This document shows, piece after piece, positions 8,882 to 10,540 of a DNA stretch of 12,317 bases. The stretch's first letter is position 1. Every line of letters begins with the position of its first letter. The DNA is taken from positions 1-12,317 of the IMG/VR virus record IMGVR_UViG_2690316115_000015; one strand, given 5' to 3'. The notes beneath the pieces are model-generated. The model searched no databases. It worked only from the letters and a program-made list of their open reading frames with translations, and was not told where the DNA came from. The translations under genes and the position numbers were made by a program. The stretch comes from a virus. Its lineage: Duplodnaviria; Heunggongvirae; Uroviricota; Caudoviricetes.

Positions 8882-9343
8882 ATGAGCGAAAAAATTGCCG
8901 TTGTCTATATCGGCCCCAAACCCGTGAAAAAGGATACCCTTACCGGGAGTCGTACACTGTTCCCGCGCCTTGAACCGGTGCATGTTGACAGTGCGCTCGC
9001 CTGGCAGTTGCTGGCCTTTCCTGAAGTCTGGATTCGTCATGAAGAGCTTGATGGTGTGCTCAAAAAGCAACAACAGGATGGGCAGTTGCGGCAGGCACAG
9101 CAGGAACAGGAAAGAGCGCTTGCCGCGCGGGAAGAAGCGGAGAGCAGTTTTGTTGTTCCCGTCAATGGAGAGAATGTGGATTTAAGTAAGCTCACCTCAG
9201 CACGGCTGGCAACGTTGTGTGAGGCAGAAGAGCTGAATATTCACAAAGACCCGAAAGAAACGGCTGATGCATTCCGTATCCGTGTGCGTGAGGCATTTCG
9301 CCGTCGTGTTGCGGAGACTGAACAACATGGCGGAACTGACTGA
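8882..9343 (+). CDS. Hypothetical virion-associated protein (possible head completion / head-tail joining protein)
   Basis: 153 aa ORF with a GGGGAA SD-like sequence upstream. Central Gln/Glu-rich helix (LKKQQQDGQLRQAQQEQERALAAREEAE). Its stop overlaps the next gene's start. The function is inferred from position only. Confidence 0.45.
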   Translation: MSEKIAVVYIGPKPVKKDTLTGSRTLFPRLEPVHVDSALAWQLLAFPEVWIRHEELDGVLKKQQQDGQLRQAQQEQERALAAREEAESSFVVPVNGENVDLSKLTSARLATLCEAEELNIHKDPKETADAFRIRVREAFRRRVAETEQHGGTD

Positions 9344-9890
9344 TTTTTTGCCTTATGTCCGTCGTCATATCAGCGGTCCACTGAGCATTATGATGACGGA
9401 TGCGTTATCCATGTCGGCAGTGGCATTCTGCCGTCAGTCCCTGTTGTGCCGCCGTGAGGCTACGTTGTCACCGTCAGCCGGAGAGGACTGTGTGCTGCCA
9501 TATGACGCGGAGAATGAAGAGTGCGTACATATTATTCGTCTCCTCGCTGACGGGCGTGAGCTTTTTGCCGGTCATGATGTGGAAATCCGCCCGGGGCGGG
9601 TAATGCATTTTGCCTGTTCGCCCGGAGAAGTGAGTGTGCTTTATGCCATTGCTCCGAAAGCAGGGAGCCGTCAGGTGCCGGATGAACTGCGGGCATGGCC
9701 TGAAGAGGTGGCAGCAGGGGCGCTTGAACGGTTGTTTATGCAGACCGGGGTTTCATGGTCAGACCCGTCGCGTGCACAGTATTTCTCTGTGCAGTTTTCT
9801 GAGGGTATCCGTCGGGCATATCGCGATACACTGGCGACAAGTCCGTACTCCTCATACCGCAATCCTGTACGCAGGCAGAGGTTTTTCTGA
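9327..9890 (+). CDS. Hypothetical protein (virion assembly module); start re-assigned to ATG at 9327
   Basis: The ORF track starts this frame at 9267. The in-frame ATG at 9327 (MAELTDFLPYV...) overlaps the upstream stop (ATGGCGGAACTGACTGA) in the usual coupling arrangement and avoids a 77-nt out-of-frame overlap. The stop overlaps the next start (TGATG at 9888-9892). Confidence 0.45.
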   Translation: MAELTDFLPYVRRHISGPLSIMMTDALSMSAVAFCRQSLLCRREATLSPSAGEDCVLPYDAENEECVHIIRLLADGRELFAGHDVEIRPGRVMHFACSPGEVSVLYAIAPKAGSRQVPDELRAWPEEVAAGALERLFMQTGVSWSDPSRAQYFSVQFSEGIRRAYRDTLATSPYSSYRNPVRRQRFF

Positions 9891-10540
9891 TGACGACGAT
9901 TACAGAAATCATCGGACGTGTGAATACACAACTGGTTGACCCGATGATGGTTCGCTGGCCCCTGCAGGAATTGTGCGATTATTACAATGATGCTGTGAGG
10001 GCAGTGATTCTGGCGAGACCGGATGCTGGCGCAAGCCTGGAAACAATCAGTTGTGTTCCTGGCGCCCGTCAGGTTTTGCCCGATGGTGTAATACAACTTC
10101 TTGACGTGATATGCCTCAGTGACGGTAGTGCAGTCAGACCATTATCCCGGGAGGTGCTGGATGCGCAGTATCCTGAGTGGCCCACAATGAAGGGTATTCC
10201 TGAATGTTTTATCAGCAACGACCTGTCCCCGCGCGTATTCTGGCTGTTTCCTGCTCCTGACAAAGAGATAAGTATTGATGCAGTGGTAAGCCGGATACCG
10301 GAGGCAGAGTATGTTCTGACGCAGGACGATGATACGCCAGTTCCACTGGAAGAGGCTTATGTTAACCCACTGGTGGAGTGGATGTTGTTTCGCGCTTTCA
10401 GTAAGGATGCTGCCGGTGGCGCAGAATCGGGGCTGGCTGCGCAGCATTATCAGAGTTTTGTTGAGCAACTTGGGATCAAACAGGGGGCAGACAGTGCATT
10501 GTCTGCCCGTAAAAAAGTGTTTAACGGAGGTGGAGTGTGA
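9890..10540 (+). CDS. Hypothetical protein immediately upstream of the tail fibre (possible tail accessory / adaptor protein)
   Basis: 216 aa ORF coupled at both ends (ATGA at its start; its TGA stop overlaps the GTG start of the fibre). No motif recognised. Confidence 0.45.
   Translation: MTTITEIIGRVNTQLVDPMMVRWPLQELCDYYNDAVRAVILARPDAGASLETISCVPGARQVLPDGVIQLLDVICLSDGSAVRPLSREVLDAQYPEWPTMKGIPECFISNDLSPRVFWLFPAPDKEISIDAVVSRIPEAEYVLTQDDDTPVPLEEAYVNPLVEWMLFRAFSKDAAGGAESGLAAQHYQSFVEQLGIKQGADSALSARKKVFNGGGV

Follow-up and report, generated by a model that had tools for sequence, protein, structure and literature searches.

Predicted neck and tail adaptors and a candidate non-virion helper encoded between the cement and fibre genes of a short-tailed Sepvirinae-type prophage

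The window analysed in this study is a stretch of 12,317 nucleotides (nt) of the IMG/VR virus record IMGVR_UViG_2690316115_000015, and the elements in question are three small open reading frames (ORFs), designated ORF1, ORF2 and ORF3, which lie between the capsid genes and the tail fibre gene. It is very probable that ORF2 and ORF3 encode two stacked adaptor rings and that ORF1 encodes a non-virion helper, in a short-tailed T=9 prophage of the Sepvirinae type. The neck architecture and the gene assignments have already been published for near-identical phages.

The plus strand of the window reads as a collinear phage late operon, from the small terminase gene to the fibre gene. Region 8400-10600 displays 80-95% nucleotide identity to 186 records of Shiga toxin (Stx)-converting and related phages of the Sepvirinae, the late module being collinear with these relatives at per-gene identities of 80-100%, and the E. 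coli ML35 chromosome matches region 8400-12317 at 100% identity. These comparisons assign the window to the late morphogenesis module of a short-tailed prophage of the 933W/phi24B type (Sepvirinae). The three ORFs match PHROG families with E values of 2e-84 to 4e-96; these matches, the ratio of non-synonymous to synonymous substitution rates (dN/dS) of 0.19 for ORF1, and the detection of ORF2 and ORF3 homologues in virions indicate that they are genuine genes rather than chance ORFs. The original prediction, made from the letters of the window, had given their sizes as 153, 188 and 216 amino acids (aa); the first and the third are right, and ORF2 encodes 187 aa. It had also counted only these three ORFs between capsid and fibre, and thereby overlooked a 130-aa cement gene (8439-8831) which precedes ORF1.

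The product of ORF3 matched the Pfam family PF24175 (SU10_adaptor) at E 4.1e-31, with 109.4 bits where the gathering cut-off is 27, its residues 2-203 covering profile positions 1-190 of 194. Residues 7-198 also matched 8jov_2, a protein present in 12 chains in the portal-tail complex of Ralstonia phage GP4 (E 9.1e-24). ORF3 is 99.5% identical to gp62 of phi24B, and the contact segments named for gp62 (E138-V151 and D173-A178) are conserved in it one-to-one. In the phi24B structure, two dodecameric adaptor rings are stacked; gp62 forms the second, at which the symmetry changes from C12 to C6 towards the hexameric nozzle gp57, and the C-terminal helical domain of gp62 grips the N-terminal beta-sandwich of the fibre gp61 via gp61 residues K65 and K67 (bioRxiv 10.64898/2026.04.10.717836). 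In the virion proteome of phi24B, gp62 accounts for 232 peptide-spectrum matches (PSMs). Both lysines are present in the fibre of the window, which is 99% identical to gp61. These observations point to ORF3 as the tail adaptor, that is, as the second dodecameric ring, with the 12-to-6 switch and the docking site of the fibre. An absence of recognisable motifs had been stated for all three products; ORF1 and ORF2 have no Pfam match, but for ORF3 the statement is wrong.

ORF2 had no match to Pfam, PF24175 included, at E<=0.1, and a homologue which is 79% identical to it (P0189) carries a precomputed PF24175 match. A phmmer search aligned ORF2 to 8jov_G (GP4 gp81, 12 chains) at E 3.4e-4, and its homologue in the GP4-like phage Gervaise aligned pairwise over the full length, from residue 1, at E 3e-7. 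The AlphaFold2 model of ORF2 has a predicted local distance difference test score (pLDDT) of 82 and a predicted template modelling score (pTM) of 0.77, and it displays the N-terminal helices, the beta-sandwich and the C-terminal helical bundle of the podovirus adaptor fold. When the model was compared with known structures by Foldseek, the top match was again 8jov_G (E 6.5e-11, template modelling (TM) score 0.74), followed by the adaptors of Pa223, KHP30, crAss001, P1, SU10, LME-1, VP1 and N4, and by 8jov_2. BLASTP detected no similarity between ORF2 and ORF3, so that their paralogy is one of fold only.

ORF2 is 80% identical to gp64 of phi24B, the neck adaptor, which forms a 12-mer ring directly on the portal (bioRxiv 10.64898/2026.04.10.717836) and which is represented in the virion proteome by 677 PSMs. 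Portal residue K409 and the portal loop R501-N527, both named in the phi24B structure, have exact counterparts in the portal of the window. In phage Sp5, deletion of the 187-aa homologue (ORF65) abolished DNase-resistant DNA, and mutants in the fibre, nozzle, needle and giant-protein genes retained it (PMC5155283); the ORF65 phenotype fits the head-completion role of a neck adaptor. The predicted fold and the phi24B counterpart thus identify ORF2 as the probable neck adaptor, the first dodecameric ring on the portal, with a role in head completion. The three products had originally been read as head-completion or adaptor proteins joining the portal to the fibre. The reading is borne out for ORF2, by its adaptor fold, and for ORF3, by sequence, and it fails for ORF1, which gave no adaptor match by fold or family and whose phi24B homologue yielded zero spectra.

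The ORF1 product is 88% identical to gp65 of phi24B (vb_24B_33). When the virion proteome of phi24B was searched with a six-frame database (71,304 PSMs), zero spectra were recorded for gp65, and the complete protein list does not contain it, yet the protein has several good tryptic peptides. The cement protein gp67 had 793 PSMs and the low-copy gp54 had 94, in addition to the 677 and 232 of gp64 and gp62. The absence of gp65 from virions in which its neighbours were detected suggests that ORF1 is not a structural adaptor. That the virion contains all three products, ORF1 among them, as structural proteins for head completion or as adaptors is highly unlikely. The ORF1 gene runs in the same direction as the adaptor genes and overlaps ORF2 at its end, and the adaptor lumen of phi24B holds a diffuse unassigned density which is gone on ejection, both of which would suit a virion component. 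The PSM counts, by comparison with gp54 and the two adaptors, speak against it, and so does the phi24B cryo-electron microscopy (cryo-EM) map, in which no gp65 has been modelled (bioRxiv 10.64898/2026.04.10.717836). The positional analogue in the Bcep22-like phage JC1, gp50, is likewise missing from the virion proteome, in which gp49, gp51 and gp52 are present (PMC9144972). That ORF1 is a low-copy virion component missed by the proteome is also quite unlikely.

ORF1 belongs to phrog_482, a family of unknown function, which was the only match among Pfam, PHROGs and NCBIfam. A HMMER search of 1.84 billion representatives recovered 143 clusters of the family at 50% identity, nearly all of 140-185 aa. 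Homologues occur in E. coli prophages and the Sepvirinae, in some 100 Vibrio phages and, at 55% identity, in Aeromonas phage phiARM81mr. Others come from genomes of Salmonella, Photobacterium and Serratia and bear only the name 'hypothetical'. The gene order around them is always capsid, cement, ORF1, ORF2-like and ORF3-like. The protein begins with a small N-terminal domain, continues with a variable helical linker rich in Q, E and A, and ends with a C-terminal module of a hairpin plus two helices. As compared to the phi24B homologue, the dN/dS is 0.19 overall; it is lowest in the N-terminal domain (0.075), intermediate in the C-terminal domain (0.26) and highest in the linker (0.49), indicating that the family evolves under purifying selection.

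The AlphaFold2 model of ORF1 (pLDDT 70) found no fold match, and the isolated domains matched nothing in Pfam at E<=10. By eye, the pattern of the C-terminal module resembles the SAP/HeH (helix-extended-helix) motif; it had no Pfam match at E<=10, and a BFVD protein named Rho_N was matched at E 1.4. A 436-aa 'repeat' match to this module (P0120) proved to be a translated DNA repeat and was discarded. A metagenomic member of the family (P0051, 279 aa) contains one N-terminal domain followed by the linker and the C-terminal module twice; this doubling suggests that the module is an independent, duplicable unit.

From these observations we infer that ORF1 is a non-structural morphogenetic helper at the portal vertex. 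It would act at the transition from packaging to neck attachment, and might there serve either as a chaperone of the neck adaptor or as an aid to packaging. A function as chaperone of the neck adaptor is possible, though short of an even chance, and a good part of the remaining probability falls to other roles. A second candidate role, which is unlikely, is that of a functional analogue of lambda gpFI, a non-virion packaging chaperone which promotes the interaction of terminase and prohead, in place of a neck-adaptor chaperone. ORF1 and gpFI are alike in map position (after the capsid and decoration genes and before a head-completion gene), in small size, in two small domains joined by a flexible linker, and in their absence from virions. 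Loss of the homologue is non-lethal in Sp5, the deletion being confounded, and in the mosaic described below ORF1 co-travels with the terminase, portal and capsid genes. As against these likenesses, ORF1 has no Pfam match to the gpFI family (PF14000, Packaging_FI), the profile comparison by hhalign gave a probability of 0.1%, and hmmsearch returned E 0.18 in a database of 7 sequences. The resemblance to gpFI is accordingly one of analogy and not of family membership. Moreover, ORF1 lies behind two hairpins in a low-expression block and abuts an adaptor gene in every lineage, which favours the neck step over packaging.

The position occupied by ORF1 is conserved beyond its own family. In the group of GP4, Bcep22, PBC5 and Pavtok, a protein of 179-243 aa occupies this slot, and no similarity was detected between these proteins and the ORF1 family by BLASTP, by hidden Markov model searches or by hhalign. 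The slot protein of Gervaise, a member of the GP4 clade, had no counterpart by sequence in PDB 8JOV. The sole link by sequence is a chimeric slot protein of a Comamonas prophage (P0155), the N-terminus of which is a GP4-clade domain (42% identity, E 2e-8) and the C-terminus an ORF1-type module (hhalign probability 96%, E 3.5e-9). The two groups are thus connected by this chimera, by the absence of JC1 gp50 from virions and by the lack of a Gervaise counterpart in 8JOV. Among remote ORF1 relatives, the source name is 'hypothetical' except for this chimera, which is named 'SlyX family'.

In all eight lineages examined, the slot gene and the first adaptor gene are separated by between a 17-nt overlap and a 4-nt gap, and the slot gene is preceded by a gap of 50-85 nt with a strong GC-rich hairpin. 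The hairpin gap and the abutment to the adaptor gene place ORF1 in the low-copy neck block and not in the high-copy shell block. The neck-type adaptor gene comes first in the Sepvirinae, Aeromonas and Vibrio phages, and the SU10-type adaptor gene comes first, i.e. in inverted order, in GP4, Bcep22, PBC5, Pavtok and Comamonas. The slot proteins might constitute a class of non-virion morphogenetic factors, so far unrecognised and widespread among T=9 podoviruses like phi24B, GP4 and Bcep22, with a small N-terminal domain, a variable linker and a two-helix module at the C-terminus, and might hand the portal vertex over from the terminase to the neck adaptor, although this generalisation is rather doubtful.

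The published genetics of Sp5 supplies several of the points which weigh against the assignments made here. The Sp5 deletions were rebuilt from the published primers on the VT2-Sakai sequence (L005 1982-3660, corresponding to window 8870-10560). As designed, the deletion of ORF64, the homologue of ORF1, also removes the ATG and the upstream region of the essential ORF65, and a lone GTG is left in the ORF65 frame, four bases past the ORF64 ATG. This mutant stays infectious, with markedly reduced infectivity (PMC5155283). Since the start codon of ORF65 is deleted, the phenotype is not assignable to ORF64, and the only genetic datum on an ORF1 homologue is confounded. The absence of gp65 was recorded in a single proteome and leaves room for a very low-copy or labile component of the virion. 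The structural assignments rest on a preprint, and sequence searches of a PDB copy that lacked its coordinates matched 8jov only.

Spiral polymers of capsid protein are usually a sign of the loss of a scaffold protein. Such polymers, together with the lack of packaged DNA, were observed upon deletion of Sp5 ORF65 and are the source of its 'scaffold' label (PMC5155283), and they too count against a neck adaptor. A scaffolding function of ORF2, as proposed in 2016 for ORF65, is nevertheless most improbable. The homologue gp64 is found in mature phi24B virions (677 PSMs) and has been modelled as the portal ring, the predicted fold is that of podovirus adaptors, and a better candidate for the scaffold lies upstream of the capsid gene, in the 335-aa gene. 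Furthermore, the ORF65 deletion as designed takes away the stop codon of ORF64, which is thereby joined in frame to ORF66, with a predicted product of 371 aa, and this fusion may bear on the spiral polymers.

The deletion of ORF66, the tail-adaptor homologue, is of clean design, and ORF66 is not among the nine essential genes of Sp5 (PMC5155283). This is difficult to square with a ring connecting the neck adaptor with the nozzle and the fibres. If the Sp5 genetics is right, the tail-adaptor ring would be dispensable, the nozzle and the fibres docking on the neck adaptor alone, which is less likely still than the proposed class of slot proteins. The phi24B preprint (bioRxiv 10.64898/2026.04.10.717836) does not cite the Sp5 study.

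With ORF2 and ORF3 as the two adaptors, the assembly of the neck may be envisaged as follows. Once the DNA is packaged, twelve copies of ORF2 would attach to the stem and clip of the portal and serve as the ring that completes the head. Twelve copies of ORF3 would stack beneath the neck adaptor and switch the symmetry from 12 to 6 onto a hexameric nozzle encoded downstream, and their C-terminal helical domains would grip six fibre trimers by the N-terminal beta-sandwich domains.

The fibre consists of an N-terminal beta-sandwich, a coiled coil and a collagen-like shaft; in full it has 645 aa, as it is complete in ML35. In the RefSeq annotation of ML35, the fibre gene (L007 22138-24075) is split into a 'partial' pseudogene and a separate C-terminal coding sequence. 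As the frame of 645 codons is uninterrupted, this split is an annotation artefact of the collagen-repeat region. The order downstream in ML35 is the fibre remainder, the fibre C-terminal fragment, a nozzle of 541 aa, which matches 8jov_A (six chains) with E 4e-54, and a needle of 422 aa. Past the needle lie small proteins of the outer-membrane type, including one of the Ail/Lom family, then five small to medium proteins without assigned function and a giant LPD38-domain gene (L007 33226-39661); small proteins of the ejection type are also encoded in this stretch. The giant gene carries a frameshift, which leaves ORFs of 391 and 1810 aa, and is truncated beside the chromosomal sapB. It spans about 6.4 kb, and its counterparts in POCJ13 and phi24B about 8.4 kb. 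Between Q and the SASA esterase gene of the ML35 prophage, which is probably defective, there are no stx genes. With the giant gene disrupted, this prophage would be expected to yield no infectious phage and probably heads lacking fibres, the phenotype reported for the deletion of Sp5 ORF80. In Aeromonas phage phiARM81mr (L011 8866-10152), a retron-type reverse transcriptase gene is located two genes past the adaptor pair, at the site where the Sepvirinae carry fibre genes.

No tail tube, sheath or tape-measure-sized gene is present in the window, as had been noticed at the outset, and none of the families of tail tube, sheath or tape measure turned up in the 16 kb which follow in ML35, whose prophage is identical. 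It had been suggested that large ejection or tail proteins may lie downstream, and the nozzle, the needle and the giant LPD protein of ML35 bear this out. The short-tailed virion which had been deduced is likewise upheld, by the podovirus relatives and by the lack of a tube or tape measure downstream; the tail of phi24B measures 22 nm by cryo-EM (bioRxiv 10.64898/2026.04.10.717836). The probability that the three genes are head-tail connectors of the siphovirus type, with a long tail encoded downstream, is close to nil. Weak Foldseek matches of the ORF2 model to the necks of T5/DT57C, P1 and T4 could be taken in its favour, but the best matches by fold and sequence are podovirus adaptors, the relatives are podoviruses by electron microscopy, and the 16 kb downstream in ML35 comprise the genes named above, from nozzle to giant LPD protein, and then chromosomal sapB.

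Stop/start overlap junctions are routine in phage late operons. ORF1 and ORF2 overlap by 17 nt, ATGGCGGAACTGACTGA (9327-9343), the ORF2/ORF3 junction is TGATG (9888-9892) and the ORF3/fibre junction is GTGA (10537-10540), with the fibre start inside the ORF3 stop codon; the overlaps as first reported were all exact on the sequence. The ORF2 start at 9327 is backed by the alignment from residue 1 to the GP4-type homologue and by the re-annotation of Sp5. At the junctions of ORF1, ORF2, ORF3 and the fibre, every start has its own Shine-Dalgarno-like sequence. A predicted RNA hairpin (9298-9335) pairs the ORF2 AUG with the upstream coding sequence of ORF1; its energy, −28 kcal/mol for 81 nt, is weakly better than that of shuffled sequences (z −1.9). 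The hairpin is compatible with translational coupling and is statistically not strong. The three genes may, from their junctions, be translationally coupled.

The 130-aa cement protein is 89% identical to phi24B gp67, a trimeric cement protein by cryo-EM (bioRxiv 10.64898/2026.04.10.717836). The gene is flanked by two terminator-like hairpins, for which distant relatives from Vibrio, Aeromonas, Ralstonia, Burkholderia, Sinorhizobium, Erwinia and Comamonas were compared. Similar hairpins occur in the capsid-cement gap of six of seven of these relatives, and a GC-rich hairpin occurs in the cement-slot gap of all eight lineages examined. This suggests that the paired hairpins are a conserved device which sets high expression of shell proteins and low expression of neck proteins. 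The hairpin at 8844-8862 would then divide the high-copy capsid and cement genes from the low-copy block of ORF1, adaptors and fibre.

The window is also a mosaic. Its genes from the large terminase through ORF2 resemble POCJ13, at 98.6-100% nucleotide identity (about 96% in the 335-aa gene), and ORF3 and the fibre are phi24B/Sp5-like (99.3-99.7%). The parent switches about 25 nt before the ORF2 stop/ORF3 start. This pattern indicates a recombinant prophage, whose neck adaptor is linked to the portal and head genes and whose tail adaptor is linked to the fibre. The features of the window are listed in Table 1. On the minus strand, a 204-aa ORF of low GC content (40%; 151-765) is annotated in ML35 as lipopolysaccharide core heptose(II)-phosphate phosphatase and resembles a moron, i.e. 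an accessory gene unneeded for phage growth, between the lysis and terminase genes.

Table 1. Features of the late module in the 12,317-nt window
Feature	Position	Strand	Remarks
Small terminase	1335-2150	+	
Large terminase	2131-3837	+	
Portal protein, 714 aa; predicted docking partner of the neck adaptor	3837-5981	+	Pfam P22_portal, 2.9e-131
335-aa protein	6139-7146	+	
Major capsid protein	7170-8384	+	Phage_capsid_3
GC-rich hairpin with U-run, terminator-like, after capsid gene	8401-8418	+	
Capsid cement protein, 130 aa	8439-8831	+	phrog_486 'virion structural protein', 3.6e-59
GC-rich hairpin with U-run, terminator-like, between cement gene and ORF1	8844-8862	+	
ORF1, 153 aa; conserved 'slot' protein	8882-9343	+	phrog_482, 2e-84
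ORF2, 187 aa plus stop; predicted neck adaptor	9327-9890	+	8jov_G match
Recombination joint	9863-9868		Informative sites switch parent, POCJ13-like upstream, phi24B/Sp5-like downstream
ORF3, 216 aa; predicted tail adaptor	9890-10540	+	Pfam PF24175
Lateral tail fibre, GTG start; leaves window	10537-12317	+	Pfam Collagen, Phage_fiber_2, phage_tail_N, Phage_fiber_C

The neck architecture just described for Shiga-toxin phages is confirmed here in one more prophage, and to that extent little is added. The residual novelty lies solely in ORF1 (Sp5 ORF64, phi24B gp65), a conserved late gene without a function or a clean mutant. In addition, two of the Sp5 deletions published as 'in-frame, non-polar', those of ORF64 and ORF65, alter neighbouring genes owing to the gene overlaps, which bears on the 'scaffold' assignment of 2016. 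The junction between the two adaptor rings is further marked by the recombination joint as a natural exchange point between head and host-recognition modules in medically important phages.

As compared to the known systems, gp65, gp64, gp62 and gp61 of phi24B correspond to ORF64-67 of Sp5/VT2-Sakai (ECs1225-1228) and to L0118-L0121 of 933W, the genes, their order and their overlaps being the same as in the window. The window differs from these three phages in being recombinant, of the POCJ13 (Diegovirus) type from large terminase to ORF2 and of the Traversvirus type in ORF3 and the fibre, and the ML35 prophage differs from phi24B in lacking stx and in its frameshifted and truncated giant ejection-protein gene. 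GP4 (8JOV) shares the two stacked dodecameric adaptors and the hexameric nozzle (chains 2, G and A); however, its adaptor genes are inverted, its slot protein has no detectable relation to ORF1 and its fibre system is another. The adaptors of SU10, T7 (gp11), N4, crAss001 and P22/Sf6 play the same role, as a ring between portal and nozzle which carries the fibres, but these systems have a single ring, whereas phages of the phi24B type use two paralogous rings.

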